IMG/VR virus record: IMGVR_UViG_2778261572_000001
Coordinates: 1 to 7,827 of that record
Reading direction: 5' to 3' (one strand)
Length of the DNA stretch: 7,827 nt
Source of the DNA: a virus
Lineage: Duplodnaviria; Heunggongvirae; Uroviricota; Caudoviricetes
Shown here: positions 1 to 7,827 of the stretch, one piece after another
Position numbering within the stretch: position 1 is the first letter of the stretch
Layout of the letters: each line of letters begins with the position of its first letter
Made by a program: the position numbers and the translations under genes
Notes under the pieces: model-generated
What the model saw: the letters and a program-made list of their open reading frames with translations, nothing else
What the model was told of the DNA's origin: nothing
Database searches by the model: none

Positions 1-168
1 GGCGTTCCCCCAAAGCAGGTAATTCCGTTATGCCAGCTAATGAAGTGGGAAGTTACCCCGCATGAAATCCGCCCAGATATTTATCCTAACCCGACCGATG
101 GTTTACCTGTTGGATGTAAGGCTAACACACAAAATGCACAGGAGTTGATTCATGAAAATCAGGCATGA
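1..168 (+). CDS. Cro/YdaS-like HTH regulator, C-terminal fragment (5' end lies outside the window)
   Basis: Frame 1 is open from the window edge to TGA at 166-168 and translates ...LMKWEVTPHEIRPDIYPNPTDGLPVGCKANTQNAQELIHENQA. It sits immediately upstream of the CII-like gene and overlaps it by 17 nt, which is the position cro/ydaS occupies in Rac-type prophages. The family assignment is from memory and from synteny only. Confidence 0.4.
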   Translation, partial: GVPPKQVIPLCQLMKWEVTPHEIRPDIYPNPTDGLPVGCKANTQNAQELIHENQA

Positions 169-574
169 GCACATCGAATCAGTGCTGTTAGCCCTGGCCG
201 CTGAAAAAGGGCAGGCGTGGGTCGCTAACGCAATTACTGAAGAATATCTGCGCCAGGGGGGCGGCGAATTGCCCCTGGTACCAGGCAAGGACTGGAACAA
301 TCAGCAGAATATCTATCATCGTTGGTTGAAAGGTGAAACGAATGCGCAAAGGGAAAAAATTCAGAAACTGATCCCAGCAATTCTGGCAATCCTTCCGCGC
401 GAGCTGCGTCACCGACTCTGCATCTTCGATACCCTGGAACGCCGTGCATTACTGGCGGCGCAGGAAGCGTTGAGTACGGCAATTGATGCGCATGATGATG
501 CAGTCCAGGCCGTTTACCGGAAAGCACATTTCAGCGGTGGTGGAGCGTCCGACGATTCTGTTGTAGTGCATTGA
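152..574 (+). CDS. ydaT: YdaT-like (CII-like) prophage regulator, 140 aa
   Basis: ATG at 152 is preceded by GGAG at 141-144 with a 7-nt spacer; stop TGA at 572-574. The 140-aa length and the position between a cro-like gene and the replication genes match Rac prophage YdaT as I recall it. The translation starts MKIRHEHIESVLLALAAEKGQAWVANAITEEYLRQGGGELPLVPGKDW. Confidence 0.62.
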   Translation: MKIRHEHIESVLLALAAEKGQAWVANAITEEYLRQGGGELPLVPGKDWNNQQNIYHRWLKGETNAQREKIQKLIPAILAILPRELRHRLCIFDTLERRALLAAQEALSTAIDAHDDAVQAVYRKAHFSGGGASDDSVVVH

Positions 575-593
575 TTGAATAGGGTATCCAATA

Positions 594-1007
594 ATGAAAA
601 TCAAACCGTACATAAATGCCGGAAATCTTACTCCCGGCGAACTACGAGACTGGATCCTGAAACTTGCAAAAAATGCAGAAATTGCGGGTTGGGGTACAGA
701 AACTTCGGTTCGGAAGCTTCAGAGCGCAGAACTTAGCCTGCGCTCAGTTATGGACGATTTATCCCCAAGAATTAATTTTCTGGGGTCAGAGCAAATAATT
801 CGTTCGGAAGGTCACTCCAGCGAAGTTGCGGAAGTTCTGAATACTCTGAGGATAACGTTTGCTGCCGTTCGCGATATTCAACGAACCATTCTCTCATTGA
901 TTTCTCAGCTTCAAGAAATTGATAGTCGCATTCCTGGCGGGGGTCATAGAGAGCGTCTTCCAGAATGTGAAGAGCAAGGACAGGGGAAACAGATAAGGGA
1001 TCAGTAA
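594..1007 (+). CDS. hypothetical protein, 137 aa (conflicts with the minus-strand ORF 772-1227)
   Basis: ATG at 594 lies 19 nt after the ydaT-like stop, with only a weak RBS (AGGG at 581-584). First codon positions are G-rich, which is a coding-like signature, and the translation contains amphipathic helix-like stretches (VAEVLNTLRITFAAVRDIQRTILSLISQLQEIDSRI). It uses many rare codons (ATA, AGA, AGG, CGA, CTA). I recognise no family. Confidence 0.35.
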   Translation: MKIKPYINAGNLTPGELRDWILKLAKNAEIAGWGTETSVRKLQSAELSLRSVMDDLSPRINFLGSEQIIRSEGHSSEVAEVLNTLRITFAAVRDIQRTILSLISQLQEIDSRIPGGGHRERLPECEEQGQGKQIRDQ

Positions 1008-1227
1008 TACGTTTTTCACTTGCCTGGTATAGCAATCTCGCCAGCGAATCATAGCTACTGGGGCTCAGGAGAGAATCCCGTGAGTGATTTGTAAGAATCA
1101 GGTGGAAGCGGGTGAGAACTATAGCCCTGCATGTTACCAGGTTAACCATGTCGTGGTCGTGCTGGTTAATTTTGTACACAGTGCGCATGTGATTTTTAAT
1201 TTTTTGGCAAACAGCCATTAAAGACAT
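772..1227 (-). CDS. hypothetical protein, 151 aa, divergent from the replication module
   Basis: On the minus strand a canonical AGGAGG (complement of 1234-1239) sits 6 nt before the ATG (complement of 1225-1227). The ORF overlaps the 3' 236 nt of the plus-strand ORF 594-1007, so at most one of the two is likely real. First codon positions are not G-enriched, which counts against it. No recognisable motif. Confidence 0.38.
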   Translation of the reverse strand: MSLMAVCQKIKNHMRTVYKINQHDHDMVNLVTCRAIVLTRFHLILTNHSRDSLLSPSSYDSLARLLYQASEKRITDPLSVSPVLALHILEDALYDPRQECDYQFLEAEKSMREWFVEYRERQQTLSSEYSELPQLRWSDLPNELFALTPEN

Positions 1228-1290
1228 GTCGAACCTCCTTTGGTTCTGTTGATTGGGGAATCACAGATTATATCCGGAGGAAGGTTCGAC
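1228..1290. promoter_or_regulatory. divergent intergenic region with an imperfect inverted repeat GTCGAACCTCC (1228-1238) / GGAGGAAGGTTCGAC (1276-1290)
   Basis: Both arms were read directly from the sequence. Each arm carries a Shine-Dalgarno-like GGAGG followed by TTCGAC, facing outward toward the minus-strand ORF and the replication gene. A role as operator or divergent promoter region is inferred; promoter hexamers were not confidently placed. Confidence 0.3.
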
Positions 1291-1306
1291 ACCAGATGAG
1301 GCAATT

Positions 1307-2431
1307 ATGGTTAAGGCTAAAAACATGCCAAATCCCATGCCAAAAACTAAGGCAAACAACGAGCCTTATCGCAAGGTAAAAATAACGATATGGGATGATC
1401 CCAAATTTAGGGCGTTATCTCCTCTGCCTCCAAGTGGACAGAGTTTGTTTATTTATCTGCTGACCAGTCCATTTACCGGGATTATTCCTGGGTTGTTTAA
1501 AGCCGGGCGGGCAGCAATGGCTGAAGAGTTGGGGTGGGATATCGAAGCCTTTGACTTAGCCTTAGGCGAAGCCATGAATCTTGGCATGGTGAAAGCAGAT
1601 ATCAAAGCCAGAGTTTTTTGGCTCCCGAATGCTGCGAAACACAATCCGCCAAACTCGATAAATGTCATTAAATCCTGGGCAAAGGCATTCGCTTTAATTC
1701 CTGATTGCCCTCTCAAATGGGAGGCCAGGGAATCGCTGAGAGCCGCGTCCTACGGGGTTTCTGAGGCTTTGGGGATGGCATTCGATAAGGCAATCCCTTT
1801 GCCTGAGGATAAGCCTAAGGATAAGGCTAACGCTTTGTCATGCGGTATCCAGATAACAGATAACAGATATATAAACCCCACACATAACGCGCGCGTGCGC
1901 GAGAGTGTTCCGGCCAGTGAGGCAAATGGCGTGCCGTTGCAGACAGCGGAACCTGATTACCTGGAAGGCCTGAGCGAACCCATCGGGAAATTTCCGATGA
2001 CCGATGGCTGGCATCCGTCGCCGGATTTTCGACGACGGGCTGCGCTGTGGGGCGTGGCTCTTCCTGAGCCGGAATTTACACCAGCTGAACTTGCCGCCTT
2101 CCGGGACTACTGGACAGCGGAGGGGAAAGTTTTCACGCAGGTTCAGTGGGAGCAGAAATTCGCCCGTCACGTACATCACGTCAGGGCGCAGGTTAAACCA
2201 GTCAGCAAGGGGGGGAACCATGCAGCAACGCCAGGTGGCACCGCATCACGGGCAGTTCAGGAAATTCGGGCAGCACGTGAGCAGTGGGAACGTGAAAACG
2301 GATTTATCCTCGACGGAAACGGCGTGGAAGCTGTGGGAACTCATGGGGGAGGTTTATTCGAACCGCTGGACCCAGAAGAACGGGGCCGCACCTTCGAAGC
2401 TCTGGATTGCACAGATTGGCGCGATGACTGA
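1307..2431 (+). CDS. phage replication initiation protein (O-like position), 374 aa from ATG 1307, with a C-terminal region resembling the DnaT-type domain
   Basis: The frame is open from 1253 to TGA at 2429-2431. ATG 1307 is preferred (GAGG at 1298-1301, 5-nt spacer); TTG 1253 and ATG 1326 are alternatives. The C-terminal region ([39 protein letters not shown]) resembles the DnaT-like ssDNA-binding domain found in phage replication proteins, as far as I can recall it. The gene sits directly upstream of a P-like gene. Confidence 0.6.
1784..1901. repeat. iteron-like repeat cluster inside the replication initiator gene (candidate origin)
   Basis: GATAAG occurs at 1784-1789, 1808-1813 and 1820-1825, the last two within a 12-bp tandem GAGGATAAGCCT/AAGGATAAGGCT at 1805-1828. 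A tandem CAGATAA CAGATAA CAGATAT follows at 1850-1870, then an AT-rich ATATATAAAC and a GC-rich palindrome CGCGC-GT-GCGCG at 1890-1901. The layout is analogous to ori-lambda, which lies inside the O gene. Confidence 0.4.
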
Positions 2432-2885
2432 GCAGCAAATCCGTCAGGTCTGCCGCCAGTGCATGGACCGCTGCCGGGCGGGTGAAACATGGCCTCCGGA
2501 CCTGGCTGAGTTTGTTGCGCTGATTTCGGAGAGTGGGGCAAATCCATTTGGTCTGACGGTGGATAACGTGATGGAGGAGTACCGCCGCTGGCGCAACGAG
2601 TCCTGGCGATACGACGGGAGCGATAAATACCCGTGGTCTCAGCCCGTGCTGTATCACATTTGCCTCGAGATGCGGGCAAAAGGGATTGAGCGTCAGATGA
2701 CCGAAGGGGAGTTAAAACGACTTGCAGAACGGCAACTAGCGAAATGGGCAAAGCATGTTGGTGACGGCTTCAGCGTTCCGCCCGTCCGGCGGCAACTGGT
2801 AGCACCAAAACGCCCGTCGGGGCCAACTCCAATTGAGTTGCTGAAACAGGAATATGAACGCCGGAAAGCGGCTGGGTTTGTTTGA
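2220..2885 (+). CDS. replication protein P-like helicase loader, 221 aa from ATG 2220
   Basis: The translation aligns by eye with lambda P: [33 protein letters not shown] against TTMEQVNAGMRVARRQNRPFLPSPGQFVAW, and [17 protein letters not shown] against YPWKSNAHYWLVTNLYQ. ATG 2220 follows a G-rich tract. Alternative starts are ATG 2343 and ATG 2424, the latter overlapping the upstream stop as ATGACTGA. Stop TGA at 2883-2885. Confidence 0.65.
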
Positions 2886-2919
2886 GTTGAGAAGTAATTT
2901 TTACCGGGAGGAAATTTTA

Positions 2920-3663
2920 ATGGAGACCGTTTTTGACACACTGAAAGCGATGGGAAAAGCCACGTCGGTAGAACTGGCTGCGCGACTTGATATCAGTCGT
3001 GAAGAAGTGCTGTGCGAGCTGTGGGAACTGAAAAAAGCTGGTTTCGTGGATAAAAACGCCTACACCTGGCGTGTGGCTGATAACAACGTTCAGCAGGAAC
3101 AGCCAGTGCAGGCTGAACTGCCGGAAGAAACCACCACGGCAACAGTCGCTAAAATTTCGGAGAGCGATTTAACTGCGACGATTGAACAACGTGGACCACA
3201 AACGGCGGATGAACTGGCTACGCTGTTCGGTACCACATCCCGCAAAGTGGCGTCAACGCTGGCAATGGCAATCAGCAAAGGTCGTCTGATTCGTGTAAAC
3301 CAGAACGGTAAATTTCGTTACTGCATACCGGGTGATAATTTACCAGCAGAGCCGAAAGCAGCATCGGTAGCGGAAACTGATGGTAAAGCCTTTCCTCAGC
3401 CAGCAGGTGTTGCGTTACCAGTACAGGAAGTTGCAACACAGGAAGATATTAAAACAGAAACTGTGGCGGACATTGTGCAGCCGCTTGAGAAGCGAGTGGA
3501 TAATCTGGTTCTGCCATCGCTGCGACAGGCAAACCGCGAACTGCGTCGGGCGAAAAATCATGTCCAGAAGTGGGAGCGAGTCTGCGCCGCGCTGCGGGAG
3601 CTGAATAAATATCGCGATATTGTCGCCCAGCTTTGCCAGGAGGCAACCAGTGAGCAAGATTGA
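2920..3663 (+). CDS. tandem winged-helix DNA-binding protein, 247 aa
   Basis: GGGAGG at 2906-2911 with an 8-nt spacer precedes ATG 2920. Two winged-helix-like modules are visible ([41 protein letters not shown] and [33 protein letters not shown]). The upstream ATG at 2854 has no RBS and was rejected. Confidence 0.62.
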
Positions 3664-4198
3664 CTATCAGGCACTGCGTGAGGCAGCAGAAGCAATAAAA
3701 ATAGCAGCCACACCACAAAAATTGCTGGCATTTCGTATGAAAGCCACACCTCAGGTTGTGTTGGAACTGCTGGATGAACTGGAAATTAAAAGCAAACGAA
3801 TTAACGAGTTAATCAAGGGTGGTGAAAACGCCAAATACGTGACTGAAATTTTCCGACTTGAGAAAGAACGCATGACGCTGGTGGCGGAGAATGCGGTAAT
3901 GCTCGAAACTATTGAAGCCGTTCGCAGTGTTGCGGATAACTCCAGTGGAATTGCCGGATGGCATTTGAATGGCGATATCGCCACATGGGAAGAGATTCTT
4001 CCTGAAATTAACGATATCGAAACCCCAGCCACCGATGCTTTCCTGGCTGATGTACGGGCGGTGGCGTTTAACGAGCTTCGCGCGGCGTTTGTCAGGCACG
4101 CAAAAGTTGCAGGACTGGATGATGCCGATACCGTAACGCTTAAGGAAGTGACAGAAGCATTATTGCATTGTGCGGAACAGATTCGCGCGCCTGAATAA
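3650..4198 (+). CDS. ead/Ea22-like family prophage protein, 182 aa (GTG start)
   Basis: AGGAGG at 3638-3643 with a 6-nt spacer precedes GTG 3650, and the gene overlaps the upstream stop by 14 nt. The N-terminus ([22 protein letters not shown]) resembles the QALREAAE signature I associate with Ea22-like prophage proteins. The ATG at 3620 given in the ORF track lacks an RBS. Confidence 0.5.
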
Positions 4199-4322
4199 TT
4201 AAATTTAGTGTTGTAAATAAAATTTAATCCTTAACCGGAGGGATTCCTGCACCCTCAAATCATCAGGAGGCCGCCCGAAAGGGCGGTAATAAAAATGGCT
4301 GAACTAATCGGAGAACAAAACG

Positions 4323-4517
4323 ATGAAAAACCGTAAAGCAAAAATTCTTTTGACCTGTAGAAACGCTCGCGGCGTCCAGCAATGGTTAAAACTCAGTAAC
4401 CGCAGAATGGGATTGTTCACAAATACGGCTGATATTGTGATGTGTTCACTTAACAAGCCCAGCGCCGCACAAAACCGCTGGAGAAACCACGGTTCTCAGC
4501 GAACTGAAGGGGAGTGA
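4323..4517 (+). CDS. small basic protein, 64 aa (uncertain)
   Basis: GGAG at 4310-4313 with a 9-nt spacer precedes ATG 4323. The translation is rich in K and R (MKNRKAKILLTCRNARGVQQWLKLSNRRMG...). It could instead be 5' UTR for the downstream genes. Confidence 0.3.
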   Translation: MKNRKAKILLTCRNARGVQQWLKLSNRRMGLFTNTADIVMCSLNKPSAAQNRWRNHGSQRTEGE

Positions 4518-4520
4518 TAT

Positions 4521-4739
4521 ATGCCTGCATTTTTCAGAAAAGAATATCCGCGAAAGATCAGAGCAACAGAATTCCTGTTTCTCATTCTGTTTATCGTGTT
4601 GATGATACCGATATCCCCGTTAATTCTGGTATGGGGAATCGGGAAAATAATTGAGCCAGTTATTGAATTGTATAACGACGTGGTATGGGCGTCGTTCAAC
4701 ACATTGCACAATAAAATTAATCCATATAAGGAAAACTGA
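4521..4739 (+). CDS. small single-pass membrane protein, 72 aa
   Basis: A strong RBS (AAGGGGAG) lies 6 nt before ATG 4521. The translation has a basic N-terminus (RKEYPRKIR) followed by one hydrophobic helix (FLFLILFIVLMIPISPLILVWGIG). The region is AT-rich. Confidence 0.55.
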   Translation: MPAFFRKEYPRKIRATEFLFLILFIVLMIPISPLILVWGIGKIIEPVIELYNDVVWASFNTLHNKINPYKEN

Positions 4740-4740
4740 A

Positions 4741-5235
4741 ATGACTTTTACCGAAAAAGAAATGATTAAAGAAATCAAAGAGCGTATCAGTAGCCTGGAC
4801 GTACGAGACGATATTGAGCGCCGGGCTTATGAAATTACATTGGCATCACTGGAAGCAGAGCCGGTAGCATGGAGTGTAGGCAATGCTATAACTCGTGACC
4901 ATGAGAAAGCACAAAAGATTGCCGGGGATACTGGATTTTCAATTATTCCATTATACACTGTCGCAAAAGATGCTCAGAGTGTGACAAATCATTGGATGCC
5001 TGAAGTTGGCGAATATTGCGAAGTATGTACTGATGACTCTGAAATTGAATGGTTAAAAATCAAGGTGGTTGCTATTCATGGCGATGAGGTAGCCGCCATT
5101 GTTTGTGACCCTGACGATTATTATTATGATCGCTTAAAGCTTTTGGGTTGGGAATACGACAATTCTGTTTTTCGCCCTCTATCCGAAGGCGATGTTGAAA
5201 ATAACCCGATAAGTGCGGAGAACACATTACGATGA
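4741..5235 (+). CDS. hypothetical acidic protein, 164 aa
   Basis: ATG 4741 is coupled to the upstream stop (TGAAATG) and preceded by AAGGA about 8 nt upstream. The ATG at 4651 in the ORF track overlaps the previous gene and has no RBS. The C-terminal half is rich in D, E and Y (CDPDDYYYDRLKLLGWEYDNSVF). I recognise no family with confidence. Confidence 0.58.
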   Translation: MTFTEKEMIKEIKERISSLDVRDDIERRAYEITLASLEAEPVAWSVGNAITRDHEKAQKIAGDTGFSIIPLYTVAKDAQSVTNHWMPEVGEYCEVCTDDSEIEWLKIKVVAIHGDEVAAIVCDPDDYYYDRLKLLGWEYDNSVFRPLSEGDVENNPISAENTLR

Positions 5236-5315
5236 CCTGGCCTGAAGCATTCACAACGGTAGGAATTGCGATGGCGGTGGCGCTGGTGGTGTATTCGATT
5301 TGCCGCTGGGGATAA
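5232..5315 (+). CDS. 27-aa hydrophobic peptide (MTWPEAFTTVGIAMAVALVVYSICRWG)
   Basis: Its ATG overlaps the upstream stop as ATGA at 5232-5235, a classic coupling arrangement. The single hydrophobic stretch is long enough for a transmembrane helix. It is absent from the ORF track because it falls below the size cutoff. Confidence 0.35.
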   Translation: MTWPEAFTTVGIAMAVALVVYSICRWG

Positions 5316-5322
5316 AAACGGT

Positions 5323-5350
5323 TTGCGGGAAAAGGAGAGTTAAGTAGAAT
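5323..5350 (+). promoter_or_regulatory. candidate weak promoter for hok/mok mRNA
   Basis: TTGCGG at 5323-5328, a 16-nt spacer, then TAGAAT at 5345-5350. This places the transcript start near 5357, exactly where the 5' element complementary to the 3' end begins (5355-5368). Confidence 0.3.
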
Positions 5351-5409
5351 TGCAGCGGGTGCTTGAGGCTATCTGTCTCAGGCATGAACACCAAAAGGCA
5401 GATAGAGAA

Positions 5410-5480
5410 AAGCCCCAGTTAACATTACGCGTCCTGCAAGACGCTTAACATTAATCTGAGGCTCAATCCATGCTGAACAC
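5410..5480 (-). ncRNA. sok: Sok-like antisense RNA (position inferred)
   Basis: In hok/sok loci the antisense RNA is transcribed opposite the mok translation-initiation region. A candidate minus-strand promoter is present: TTGCCT (complement of 5508-5513), a 17-nt spacer, then TAACCT (complement of 5485-5490). The coordinates are approximate and the ends are not determined. Confidence 0.3.
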
Positions 5481-5682
5481 ATGTAGGTTAGCCTCTTACG
5501 TGCCGAAAGGCAAGGAGAAGCAGGCTATGAAGCAGCAAAAGGCGATGTTAATCGCCCTGATCGTCATCTGTTTAACCGTCATAGTGACGGCACTGGTAAC
5601 GAGGAAAGACCTCTGCGAGGTACGAATCCGAACCGGCCAGACGGAAGTCGCTGTCTTCACAGCTTACGAACCTGAGGAGTAA
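5470..5682 (+). CDS. mok: Mok-like in-frame upstream reading frame of hok, 70 aa
   Basis: ATG 5470 is in frame with hok, with GAGG at 5457-5460 and a 9-nt spacer. The N-terminus MLNTCR... matches the chromosomal MokC-type extension as I recall it. Confidence 0.5.
   Translation: MLNTCRLASYVPKGKEKQAMKQQKAMLIALIVICLTVIVTALVTRKDLCEVRIRTGQTEVAVFTAYEPEE
5527..5682 (+). CDS. hok: Hok/Gef family type I membrane toxin, 51 aa
   Basis: The translation MKQQKAMLIALIVICLTVIVTALVTRKDLCEVRIRTGQTEVAVFTAYEPEE is an unmistakable Hok/Gef family sequence, by my recollection closest to HokD/RelF. AAGGAG at 5512-5517 with a 9-nt spacer precedes ATG 5527. Confidence 0.85.
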   Translation: MKQQKAMLIALIVICLTVIVTALVTRKDLCEVRIRTGQTEVAVFTAYEPEE

Positions 5683-5689
5683 GAGACCT

Positions 5690-5746
5690 GGCGGGGGAGA
5701 AATCTCCCGCCACCTCTGATGTGTCAGGCATCCTCAATGCACCCGC
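5690..5746 (+). other. hok mRNA 3' structure: stem-loop plus fbi-like element complementary to the mRNA 5' end
   Basis: A stem-loop lies at 5690-5711 (GGCGGGGGAG aaat CTCCCGCC). The segment 5732-5746 (CCTCAATGCACCCGC) can pair over 14 bp, with one bulge, to 5355-5368 (GCGGGTGCTTGAGG). This is the long-range tac/fbi interaction characteristic of hok mRNAs. Confidence 0.5.
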
Positions 5747-5806
5747 ACCTGACGCGTTTTGCTGGGTTAATGTTGAGCCATTTGTCATGTTAATAAGGAG
5801 GAGTGA

Positions 5807-6672
5807 ATGAGAACGTATATTAAAGAGTTGAGATGGGGTAATTTTATCCTGCTCAGAGGTGATATGATTTCTAATTATGCTTCAAATTATGGGGAATGGT
5901 GCGAGGTTGAGGTTGACTTATACAAAACATTATTATCAGAAGGTAGTAATGTTATAGAGATAGGTGCAAACATAGGACTGCATACAATTCCATTGTCAAA
6001 AATTTGTGGTAAAGGGAGCATAATATGCTTTGAACCGCAACCACCAATATTTAACATGTTATGTGGTAATTTGGCTATAAATAATATATTGAATGTTATG
6101 CCATATAACAAAGCTGTTGGAGATAGGTGTGGTAGTGTTGTAATTCCTGTGTCTTCGTATGATAAACCATGGAATTATGGTTCATTTTCAATTGAAAAAG
6201 GTTATAATAGTGAAGGTGATTATGATGCCAGCCCAGCCCAGCCCAGCAATGCATTGATCTAATCACAATAGATGCATTTACGGAATCAACGGGCTTGAAA
6301 GTTGATTTTATTAAAATAGATGTTGAAGGCTATGAACTAAACTGTATTCGCGGGGCCGTAAACACAATAAAGGATAACAGACCAGCAATATTTTGTGAAG
6401 CCATTAATAAAAATATTACAAATGAGGTTGTGTCTTTTTTATCAGATCTTGGTTATGAAGGTTTTTGGTTCATTGGAAACAGATATAGACAAGATAACTT
6501 TTTTGCATGTCCTGGACAAATCTATAATAAATTGAGTTATGATGTTAATATTATCTTCATTCATAAAGAGGACAGGGGGGGATCGAGAAATCTATGTAGA
6601 GAAAGGCTTAAAAGATTCGAGTATTTTGAGCAATTACATGAAGGGATAACTGTTCTGAATTCATATCCTTAA
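5807..6672 (+). pseudogene. FkbM-family (Methyltransf_21) SAM-dependent methyltransferase, frameshifted at a pentanucleotide repeat
   Basis: The N-terminal ORF 5807-6262 carries the VIEIGANIG glycine-rich SAM-binding motif and the ICFEP motif. The C-terminal reading frame is open from 6226 to 6672 and carries KVDFIKIDVEGYEL. The two frames meet at the repeat at 6227-6247; deleting one 5-nt unit gives a single ORF of about 286 aa. A strong RBS (AGGAG at 5796-5800) precedes ATG 5807. The region is markedly AT-rich, roughly one-third GC by eye. Confidence 0.7.
6227..6247. repeat. pentanucleotide tandem repeat GCCAG(CCCAG)3C
   Basis: Read directly from the sequence. It forms a GC-rich island inside an AT-rich gene, exactly at the frame break of the methyltransferase. 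Confidence 0.9.
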
Positions 6673-6697
6673 AAATATCTGTATTACTTCATGTTAG

Positions 6698-6750
6698 CAG
6701 ATAAACCAATTCCGAACATTGGGGTTGGTTTATCTGTATTTATGTTTTAT
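6698..6750 (+). terminator. candidate intrinsic terminator after the methyltransferase gene
   Basis: A perfect 12-bp inverted repeat, CAGATAAACCAA (6698-6709) and TTGGTTTATCTG (6725-6736), is followed by a T-rich tract (TATTTATGTTTTAT). Confidence 0.45.
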
Positions 6751-6814
6751 CATTAGAATAAAGCCAGTCTGAACAACTGGCATCTGCTGCACTGCGCCAT
6801 AGAGAGATTAATAA

Positions 6815-7414
6815 ATGGCGCATATACAACTGGTCAAACATACTTCTTCTGGTTTACTTCTCCCGGCGACGCCGGAGAGTTGCGATTTTTTGCATCAAAT
6901 CAAAATAGGTGAGTGGATACACGCAGACTTTAAGCGTGTGCGTAACTACGCATTCCACAAGCGTTTTTTCAAACTCCTGCAACTGGGATTCGATTACTGG
7001 ACTCCGGTCGGTGGGGCGATCACGCCTCGCGAACGAAAACTGGTATCAGGCTTCGTTGATTACCTGTGCGAATCAGTAGGTCGGGAACACACTCCAGCCC
7101 TGAGTGATGCCGCAGAGCAATACCTTAATACAGTTGCGACATGCAGAACCCGGGATACGGCATTGCTAAAGTCGTTTGACGCTTTCCGCGAGTGGGTAAC
7201 CATTCAGGCCGGATTTTACACCGAGCATATTTATCCGGACGGTAGCCGCGGGCGTCGAGCGAAATCCATCGCGTTTGCGAATATGGACGAAACCGAGTTT
7301 CAGCAGGTTTATAAATCTGTGCTGAATGTGCTGTGGAACTGGATCCTGTTCCGTAAATTTTCCTCTCCGGAACAAGTCGAAAATGTGGCCGCGCAGCTAC
7401 TGGAGTTTGCGTAA
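6815..7414 (+). CDS. DUF1367-like prophage nin-region protein, 199 aa
   Basis: ATG 6815 follows the terminator-like hairpin, and the stop overlaps the next start as TAATG. The family assignment is from memory of proteins of this size preceding DUF1364/YbcO genes in lambdoid prophages and was not verified. Confidence 0.55.
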   Translation: MAHIQLVKHTSSGLLLPATPESCDFLHQIKIGEWIHADFKRVRNYAFHKRFFKLLQLGFDYWTPVGGAITPRERKLVSGFVDYLCESVGREHTPALSDAAEQYLNTVATCRTRDTALLKSFDAFREWVTIQAGFYTEHIYPDGSRGRRAKSIAFANMDETEFQQVYKSVLNVLWNWILFRKFSSPEQVENVAAQLLEFA

Positions 7415-7704
7415 TGGTGAATTTACGTAAAGCGGCGCGGGGCCAGATGTGCCAGGTCAGAATCCCTGGATACTGCAATCATAATCCTGAAACGTCTGTG
7501 CTGGCGCATTACCGACTGGCGGGAACGTGTGGAACGGCGATAAAACCACACGATATGCAGGCAGCGATTGCCTGTAGCTCGTGCCACGATTTAATCGACG
7601 GGCGGGTAAAAACCAGCGATTACACCAAAGAAGAATTACGCCTGATACATGCAGAAGGTGTTTTTCGCACACAAGAAATCTGGAGAAAGGAAGGTTATTT
7701 ATGA
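7414..7704 (+). CDS. ybcO: YbcO-like (DUF1364) putative zinc-binding nuclease, 96 aa
   Basis: The translation MVNLRKAARGQMCQVRIPGYCNHNPETSVLAH...CSSCHDLIDGR matches my recollection of the YbcO family, including the N-terminal LRKAARG motif and the Cys cluster. It is coupled to the upstream gene (TAATG) and to the downstream gene (ATGA). Confidence 0.65.
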   Translation: MVNLRKAARGQMCQVRIPGYCNHNPETSVLAHYRLAGTCGTAIKPHDMQAAIACSSCHDLIDGRVKTSDYTKEELRLIHAEGVFRTQEIWRKEGYL

Positions 7705-7827
7705 TTTACCCAACGAATACAGGAAAAAGCGGAGAACACCTTCGTCTCACCACGCTGGAAAGTGTCTGGATTCAGGGGAAACTGCGTATGTGGGGGCGCT
7801 GGTCGTATATTGGTGGCGGTAAGACGG
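7701..7827 (+). CDS. 5' part of a downstream nin-region gene running off the window; possibly a Q-antiterminator-like protein
   Basis: A strong RBS (AAGGAAGG at 7687-7694) with a 6-nt spacer precedes ATG 7701, and the frame is open to the window end. The motif LRMWGRW loosely resembles the ERWGAW motif near the N-terminus of 82-type Q/QuuD antiterminators; this product guess is weak. Confidence 0.5.
   Translation, partial: MIYPTNTGKSGEHLRLTTLESVWIQGKLRMWGRWSYIGGGKT

Follow-up and report, generated by a model that had tools for sequence, protein, structure and literature searches.

A likely mosaic array of translationally coupled small genes between an Ea22-like gene and hok in a lambdoid Escherichia coli prophage

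Arrays of small, head-to-tail and highly mosaic genes are known from phage lambda, where the exo-xis region with its ea genes (ea22, ea8.5, orf60a, orf61, orf63) consists of non-essential early genes of regulatory or unassigned function that influence the lysis-lysogeny decision (PMC10834534). A comparable array is described here in the window, by which we mean the whole 7,827-nucleotide (nt) stretch analysed, positions 1 to 7,827 of IMG/VR virus record IMGVR_UViG_2778261572_000001 (Caudoviricetes). Four consecutive open reading frames (ORFs) on the plus strand occupy positions 4323-5315 and are called ORF64, ORF72, ORF164 and ORF27 after the number of amino acids (aa) in their products. We consider it likely that this segment consists of mosaic accessory genes of the early region of a lambdoid prophage, which are arrayed with coupled translation and the products of which act separately. 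Unlike the exo-xis region of lambda, the array in the window belongs to the pR-side operon and follows the replication genes, and lambda lacks all four genes. In Shiga toxin (Stx) phages the same gene families are found in the pL-side ea/exo-xis region, adjoining xis-int.

The single genes also have described counterparts. YfdT of the cryptic K-12 prophage CPS-53 and the DUF551 and Ea22 proteins resemble ORF164 in combining an N-terminal helical module with a swappable C-terminal domain, which for Ea22 is documented (PMC10834534), and they take the same position in ea gene arrays; the C-terminal domain of ORF164 is neither that of YfdT nor that of DUF551. The only reported phenotype of YfdT is a block of replication initiation by yfdT together with yfdQR at high copy number (PMC4776307), and nothing links this phenotype to ORF164. 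ORF72 is a full-length member of the DUF4014/phrog_1832 family, for which no function is assigned. ORF27 is like the type I toxins (Hok, TisB, DinQ, Ibs) and the regulatory micropeptides (KdpF, AcrZ, MgtS) in being a small single hydrophobic helix that is missed by standard annotation. It differs from type I toxins in that it has no antisense RNA or promoter of its own and starts at a stop-start overlap inside an operon. A comparison of ORF27 with known small peptides gave no significant match, KdpF reaching E = 0.024, below its cut-off.

Inserted genes with their own promoter and terminator and a differing base composition are known as morons, a concept of Hendrix and Juhala. The cluster resembles a moron in having a GC content below that of its flanks and a variable presence among related prophages, but it has no flanking promoter or terminator (by consensus scan only) and is coupled to its neighbours. 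The hok/sok locus and the low-GC FkbM gene that follow it fit the moron idea better.

Coupled junctions and independent assortment of the four genes

The gene order, the family matches and the annotated relatives identify the window as the early-right region of a lambdoid E. coli prophage. The order is YdaT-like, O/P-type replication genes, DUF1627, Ea22, the four-ORF cluster, hok, FkbM, DUF1367 and DUF1364, and annotated relatives have the same order and run on to a DUF1133/antiterminator-Q-like gene. The sequence-only reading of this DNA had described four same-strand ORFs in an AT-richer segment between an Ea22-like gene and hok. This description holds, as the ORF listing and direct reading agree and the GC content of 4323-5315 is 0.43 vs 0.505 upstream. 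The properties given there for the products were likewise recovered: a 64-aa basic protein (isoelectric point, pI, 11.6), a 72-aa single-pass membrane protein with a strong ribosome-binding site (pI 9.2; one strong hydrophobic segment at aa 19-37 with a Kyte-Doolittle hydropathy, KD, of 3.0; Shine-Dalgarno sequence AAGGGGAG within the last codons of ORF64), a 164-aa acidic protein (pI 4.4) and a 27-aa hydrophobic peptide (one hydrophobic segment, aa 6-24, KD 2.1).

The coupled junctions, of which TGAAATG and an ATGA overlap had been pointed out, were read directly in the sequence. ORF64 is followed by ORF72 through TGA-TAT-ATG, ORF72 by ORF164 through TGA-A-ATG, and ORF164 by ORF27 through the ATGA overlap. 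The start codons lie 0-3 nt from the previous stop or overlap it, and the Shine-Dalgarno sequences are located inside the last codons of the preceding gene. A consensus scan of 3900-5900 returned no terminator-like site (2.2 expected by chance) and one promoter-like site, inside ORF164 (3.0 expected by chance). Since no internal promoter or terminator rises above chance, the genes look co-transcribed with the early operon and not like self-contained cargo.

The patterns of conservation described below indicate that all four ORFs are genuine genes under purifying selection, and each of them has its own distribution. Among 5,426 complete E. coli genomes, ORF64 occurs in 486, with half of its places on plasmids, DUF4014 in 1,024, the C-terminal head of ORF164 in 2, where it is unannotated by PGAP, and the ORF27 element in 1,635 (~30%), so that the spread per gene differs up to ~800-fold. 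In IMG/VR, 80 loci with an ORF64 relative contain DUF4014 in 7 cases (within 3 kb), the ORF164 head in none and the peptide in ~35. The 66 loci with DUF4014 have ORF64 in 16, the N-terminal module of ORF164 in 22, its head in 0, the peptide in 43 and hok in 46, and 62 loci with the peptide have ORF64 in 8, DUF4014 in 27 and hok in 24. Pairwise co-occurrence of the four parts ranges over 0-65%. The gene behind DUF4014 is any of over ten that encode unrelated proteins, an 87-aa protein and an HNH endonuclease among them, and the TGAnATG junction after DUF4014 is kept in 67 of 68 loci; upstream of DUF4014 stands either AAAGGAGAGTGAT[AG]TG or a hairpin cassette.

Homology to different relatives breaks at 4294, 4310, 4507, 4528, 4865, 5208 and 5316. 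All these breakpoints are within ~25 nt of a gene start or end, embedded ribosome-binding sites included, or at the LASLEAEP hinge of ORF164, and no phage record or complete genome spans 80% of 4200-5450. A search of PADLOC-DB v2 at E <= 1 returned no family for any of the four proteins, and no model in Pfam, NCBIfam or PADLOC backs a defence or toxin role for any of them.

The conserved start cassette ahead of ORF64 (Table 1) illustrates such a joint. Its hairpin at 4270-4287 has a fold energy of -15.7 kcal/mol (z = -2.7), and the same hairpin is found 6-8 nt before the DUF4014 ATG in 22 of the 66 loci and before the ATG of a DUF7167 gene in other prophages. By analogy, we infer that the cassette may act as a split Shine-Dalgarno site, in which the hairpin brings the Shine-Dalgarno sequence and the ATG to normal spacing. 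A split ribosome-binding site of comparable kind is that of T4 gene 38. Homology with strains cq9 and TUM1881 stops at ~4293-4294, next to the ATG at 4295, and homology with phage Dewey starts at 4310. The 13-codon stub that opens at this ATG is, as its sequence indicates, the scar where the start cassette was joined to the ORF64 cassette.

The micropeptide ORF27 and the other three products

ORF27 was searched by degenerate DNA patterns and by tblastn. The latter placed it in 94 phage records at 59-100% identity, with 92 of the 94 covering at least 80% of the 27 residues. The pattern scan left start and stop free and returned 140 copies, of which 136 open with ATGA and 3 with GTGA, and 137 keep both a start codon and the stop at codon 28. 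In loci fetched via ORF64 or DUF4014, and not via the peptide, 81 of 89 copies are intact, a 24-aa variant included. Every copy is preceded by an ATGA, GTGA or TAATG overlap with an upstream Ea22/DUF551-type gene. Changes within variant types, counted over unique sequences, amount to 109.5 synonymous vs 45.5 non-synonymous at a ratio of sites of ~1:3; the most diverged close copy (L296, found via P0005) differs from that in the window by 11 synonymous and 2 conservative non-synonymous changes, counted by eye. Alignment of seven variant types shows W3, P4, A6, G11, A15, V16, Y21, S22, R25 and W26 to be invariant, and replacements in the core exchange one hydrophobic residue for another. There is no signal of RNA structure (z = +1.0) and no Rfam match over 5232-5315. 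The substitution pattern indicates that ORF27 is a protein-coding gene under purifying selection.

The gene ahead of ORF27 always has GGAG or GGAGG in its last codons, with tails such as ..PEPPQEVNQ, ..GLISVEDILR and ..PISAENTLR. Because these upstream tail classes always carry the motif, the ribosome-binding site of ORF27 moves with its cassette. In the window the Shine-Dalgarno sequence is the GGAG at 5217-5220 in the ORF164 tail, and homology with cq9 and ArgO145 starts inside that tail, at 5208. On the downstream side ORF27 is followed by hok/sok, by a DUF4222-xis-int set or by oppositely oriented genes, and since these neighbours vary it is not part of hok. That the ORF27 region belongs to the hok transcript was also ruled out, as the sok model begins at 5357 and there are copies of the peptide without a hok gene.

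In the complete E. coli genomes ORF27 is found at 3,111 places, with up to 7 per genome; 163 of the places are on plasmids, including ~95-kb replicons with ead/Ea22-like genes and a DNA polymerase III theta homologue. In phages 933W, YYZ-2008, PhiR12_5 and 666R9 it starts by an ATGA overlap with the preceding stop and is annotated in none. Strains TUM1881 and E9 have the peptide together with ORF164, and in EDL933 the 933W copy adjoins hokW. PGAP leaves it unannotated in both RefSeq records inspected, and a few GenBank submissions do call it; 84 nt is very short for routine gene calling. Phage lambda and K-12 CPS-53 were checked and ORF27 is absent from both, the ea22 gene of lambda having no peptide behind it. 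A literature search for the ORF27 sequence, including the supplements of the Sakai ribosome-profiling paper, found nothing.

Some further observations concern this peptide. The shorter 24-aa variant, MSWPEAFAIVGVAMAIAAIFIFWG (loci L030, L032, L063 and L022, L035, L060, L078, L082, L240), starts by a TAATG overlap, and in six loci ATA replaces its ATG, which suggests decay or non-canonical initiation. Among species-representative genomes the sole pattern match outside Escherichia/Shigella is a 431-bp contig of Xanthomonas pisi DSM 18956 (L092), probably a contamination. The 90%-identity cluster of ORF27 (the cluster of P0165) has a 121-aa DUF551 protein as representative, a clustering artefact that could mislead look-ups. 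A fusion of ORF27 to DUF551 was ruled out, as the 121-aa DUF551 proteins in the cluster do not contain the peptide.

ORF164 is taken to start at ATG 4741 because homologues begin MTFTEKE... Its aa 2-41 are identical to aa 3-42 of K-12 YfdT in 34 of 40 positions (85%), and AlphaFold2 (AF2) predicts helices at residues 5-18 and 24-38. Database relatives number 1,629, nearly all sharing just the first ~45-75 residues, and phrog_5117, 660, 60 and 3323 all match this N-terminal module. Beyond the hinge the relatives bear DUF551 or other heads; hundreds of DUF551-type prophage proteins share the module. The middle segment is present in homologues P0001 and P0002 and missing from the alignment in P0003-P0005. 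The AF2 model has a predicted local distance difference test score (pLDDT) of 68-80 over residues 41-70 and ~50 past residue 70. For full-length ORF164 the pLDDT is 56, and fold searches were run with the domain model only.

In P0003-P0005 the C-terminal half follows another N-terminus and is 60-65% identical, and the C-terminal domain has been seen behind three different N-termini. It carries the motif W.P.VG..CEV...FRP[LI], and it is modelled as a putative Tudor/SH3-like small barrel. Among 1.84 billion representative proteins 15 match this domain. Nine of them (P0188-P0196) are 35-41% identical, with the motif W.G.GLPPVG..CEV...FRPI, and are likewise without Pfam domains. These barrel relatives are an unclassified domain family without a Pfam entry. 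They also have a second conserved C-terminal motif (..IYDAIAAGKIPGI[KR]I[DE]), and P0195 contains three barrel repeats. The giant repeat proteins P0184-P0186, which matched the C-terminal domain by numerous weak repeats of a Cys/Glu-rich unit, were treated as spurious. ORF164 itself matches no Pfam family at E <= 1, hence neither Ead_Ea22 (PF13935) nor DUF551 (PF04448), and hhalign gives its head a probability of 0.75% against DUF551. PDB sequence searches with ORF164 and with the C-domain profile gave no match, and a BFVD fold search with the domain model returned uncharacterised phage proteins only. The alignments indicate that ORF164 is a chimera of a YfdT-like N-terminal module and a rare, putatively barrel-shaped head.

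In two ORF164 homologues PGAP labels the first 41 codons (L001 4302-4424, L002 4214-4336) as a pseudogene of 'dTDP-6-deoxy-L-hexose 3-O-methyltransferase'. The labelled span corresponds to 4741-4863 of the window, and the intact 164-aa ORF is left uncalled. The methyltransferase name seems to have been passed on from the 210-aa proteins P0008 and P0009, which have just the YfdT-like module in common with ORF164.

ORF72 matches Pfam DUF4014 (PF13198) at 6e-23 and 81.5 bits vs a cut-off of 23.2, its residues 3-72 aligning with profile positions 3-72 of 72, and phrog_1832 at 1.6e-43. Over 57 distinct homologous DNAs the ratio of non-synonymous to synonymous polymorphism (pN/pS) in the sense frame is 0.25, the lowest of the six frames. 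A 71-aa ORF on the minus strand, antisense to DUF4014 at 4496-4711, matches phrog_20982 at 2.4e-31. Because the substitution pattern favours the sense frame (pN/pS 0.25 vs 0.52 antisense), phrog_20982 probably collects mis-called antisense ORFs. A literature search for DUF4014 found no paper, and the PHROG label of phrog_1832, 'released from the phage upon host infection', could not be traced to any evidence.

ORF64 matches phrog_1380 over its full length (E = 2e-23, residues 1-61 on profile positions 1-61 of 62), and IMG/VR contains 206 relatives. Compared with relatives that are 63-90% identical, the ratio of non-synonymous to synonymous substitution rates (dN/dS) is 0.10-0.28, and the sole indel seen, vs phage Dewey, is 6 nt long and in frame. 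A GGAG lies 9 nt ahead of its ATG. The PDB sequence search with ORF64 gave no match.

Coordinates and flanking genes

Table 1. Features in and around the four-gene segment (window positions).
Feature	Position	Strand	Description
Ead/Ea22-like gene	3620-4198		upstream flank; Pfam Ead_Ea22 (PF13935) 1.5e-10
Start cassette	4265-4297	+	AGGAGG 4265-4270; GNRA hairpin GCCGCCC-GAAA-GGGCGGU 4270-4287; ATG 4295, 7 nt after hairpin
Stub ORF MAELIGEQNDEKP	4295-4336	+	13 codons; overlaps ORF64 start in another frame
ORF64	4323-4517	+	64 aa; phrog_1380
ORF72	4521-4739	+	72 aa; DUF4014; basic N-terminus; predicted transmembrane segment aa ~17-40
ORF164	4741-5235	+	164 aa from ATG; mechanical ORF opens at TTG 4651
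ORF164 N-terminal module	4741-4866	+	aa 1-42; helical hairpin ending at hinge IxLASLEAEP
ORF164 middle segment	4867-4989	+	aa 43-83; predicted small alpha/beta linker module
ORF164 C-terminal domain	4990-5181	+	aa ~84-147; predicted five-stranded Tudor/SH3-like barrel
ORF164 tail (..SEGDVENNPISAENTLR*)	5182-5235	+	last 17 residues; predicted disordered, pLDDT <50
ORF27 (pep27) MTWPEAFTTVGIAMAVALVVYSICRWG	5232-5315	+	27 aa, 84 nt; ATGA start overlap
hok/sok/mok locus	5323-5682	+	downstream flank; layout like sokW/mokW/hokW of phage 933W
sok	5357-5532		Rfam RF01794, 118.9 bits
mok	5470-5682	+	
hok	5527-5682	+	Pfam HOK_GEF 1.2e-23

At the beginning of the hok/sok/mok locus, TTGCGG and TAGAAT separated by 16 nt (5323-5350) look promoter-like by our own reading by eye; this site is under the threshold of the scanner. 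Behind hok lies the low-GC gene for an FkbM-family methyltransferase (5807-6672), which is split into ORFs of 151 aa and 125 aa by a CCAGC tract at 6228-6247. Eight homologous copies (the window, L002 and L300-L305) have 3, 4, 6, 10, 12, 17, 27 and 34 CCAGC units, two of them in frame, and the tract looks like a slipped-strand, phase-variable locus. To our knowledge such a locus would be unusual for E. coli. The gene is present in 5 of the 5,426 complete E. coli genomes, always directly after hokD, and has a weak Pfam match to V. cholerae RfbT; a literature search on the CCAGC tract found no paper.

Separate genes or a functional unit

An explanation of the segment should account for the tight packing of the four genes as well as for their unequal distribution. 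The sequence-only reading had proposed that they form one module, a small membrane protein cooperating with a cytoplasmic partner and a micropeptide to bring about superinfection exclusion, abortive infection or toxicity. It would fit this that an acidic soluble protein stands in line with two small membrane proteins and that their translation is coupled, as would the adjoining hok/sok toxin-antitoxin locus and low-GC methyltransferase and the joint presence of DUF4014, peptide and hok in about two thirds of close DUF4014 loci. However, when co-occurrence across prophages was examined, as that reading had suggested, the genes were not found together as a set. Their prevalence differs widely (486, 1,024, 2 and 1,635 genomes), their neighbours are mixed, none of the 208 IMG/VR loci examined has the exact 164-aa partner, DUF4014 can be followed by one gene or another, and 933W, YYZ-2008, PhiR12_5 and 666R9 have copies of the peptide that lack DUF4014 or hok. 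With no PADLOC match and no promoter or terminator of its own in addition, a single module is very improbable and that claim is given up. What stands of the accessory-module idea is a set of uncharacterised genes of accessory type in a prophage segment that is variable and AT-richer, with two small membrane proteins and coupled junctions. A smaller unit could consist of ORF164, or another Ea22/DUF551-type protein at the end of an array, and ORF27, the peptide anchoring or regulating the soluble protein at the inner membrane, perhaps via its C-terminal tail. No copy is without the overlap, there are few classes of upstream tail, each of them conserved, and the ORF164 C-domain is only seen directly before the peptide. 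Yet the domains of the upstream partners are unrelated to one another (DUF551, Ea22 C-terminal domains, the Tudor-like barrel and others), the embedded Shine-Dalgarno sequence accounts for the conservation of the tails, and no fused form was found, the clustering with 121-aa DUF551 proteins being an artefact; we regard such a pairing as unlikely.

Two other explanations concern ORF27 alone. It could be untranslated, the 84 nt being kept as a cis element such as an upstream part of hok, a transcript-end signal or a recombination boundary. It has only 27 codons and is missing from PGAP annotation, it lies at a module boundary and is often followed by hok or hairpins, and a few copies have ATA for ATG. 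Against this, 137 of 140 copies in one set and 81 of 89 in the other retain the frame and its length, synonymous changes are in excess (109.5 vs 45.5 within types, 11 vs 2 for L296), replacements are hydrophobic for hydrophobic around invariant residues, and a Shine-Dalgarno sequence is upstream in every tail class. RNA structure is not indicated (z = +1.0), Rfam gives no match and the element occurs without hok, which makes a cis element quite unlikely. A peptide that is translated could be a type I-like membrane-damaging toxin or a holin-like peptide, its dose limited by weak coupling, that operates alongside hok in post-segregational killing or abortive infection. Its size, its hydrophobicity and a helix face of small residues (G11, A13, A15, A17) recall what is generally known of TisB, DinQ, Ibs and Hok-type peptides, and it often adjoins hok (39-70% of loci). 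Type I toxins, however, are not co-directional and coupled within an operon as ORF27 is. It has no promoter, long leader or antisense RNA signal of its own, the sok match starting at 5357, and no similarity to toxin families in Pfam, NCBIfam or PADLOC. It also occurs in as many as 7 copies per genome, a number at which an unregulated toxin could hardly be tolerated. A toxin role is in our view improbable.

In the coupled array of separately acting genes that we consider likely, the segment would be part of the early operon, between the replication genes and, further downstream, the Q-like antiterminator. Four unrelated small genes would have been put together by recombination at conserved gene junctions, and they would be transcribed with their neighbours and translated by coupling. 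The junction cassettes would provide shared sequence where genes swap, so that each gene has its own distribution. Each product would most likely act on its own, in a host-directed role, either in early lytic growth or in infection. The variable barrel of ORF164, as modelled, may be a binding domain, and the synthesis of ORF27 would keep pace with that of the Ea22/DUF551-type protein encoded last in the array.

Several points weigh against this explanation. The promoter and terminator scan was a crude consensus search by which weak or non-sigma-70 promoters would be missed, and the IMG/VR loci are redundant and not phylogenetically independent, which makes the co-occurrence fractions rough. 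DUF4014, peptide and hok are together in 65-70% of close DUF4014 loci, which may hide a looser functional link, and the ORF164 C-domain occurs in three contexts only, each time in the last gene before peptide and hok, so that this domain and the peptide may be paired. The timing, early lytic growth or the lysogen, we infer from position only.

For ORF27 a more specific proposal can be made, to be taken as tentative. It would represent a widespread and essentially unannotated family of translated 24-27-aa membrane micropeptides, the terminal cassette of ea-type arrays in lambdoid and P1-like phages, with a specific membrane function. If true, the peptide could, for example, keep out the DNA of incoming phages, control a membrane protein of the host or depolarise the membrane to a dose-limited extent.

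The cluster is an ordinary case of a known mosaic, and what is new in it are the largely unannotated micropeptide and the rare putative barrel domain. The ORF27 gene is a very frequent component of E. coli prophages and phage-plasmids, the Stx phages 933W and VT2-Sakai among them, and the rare, predicted Tudor-like domain of ORF164 would be one more swappable head on Ea22/YfdT-type proteins. Tight packing and coupled junctions in lambdoid prophages are how mosaic cassettes join and not proof of a functional unit. Because packing reflects the joining of cassettes, such clusters should not be read as defence modules without evidence of co-occurrence.

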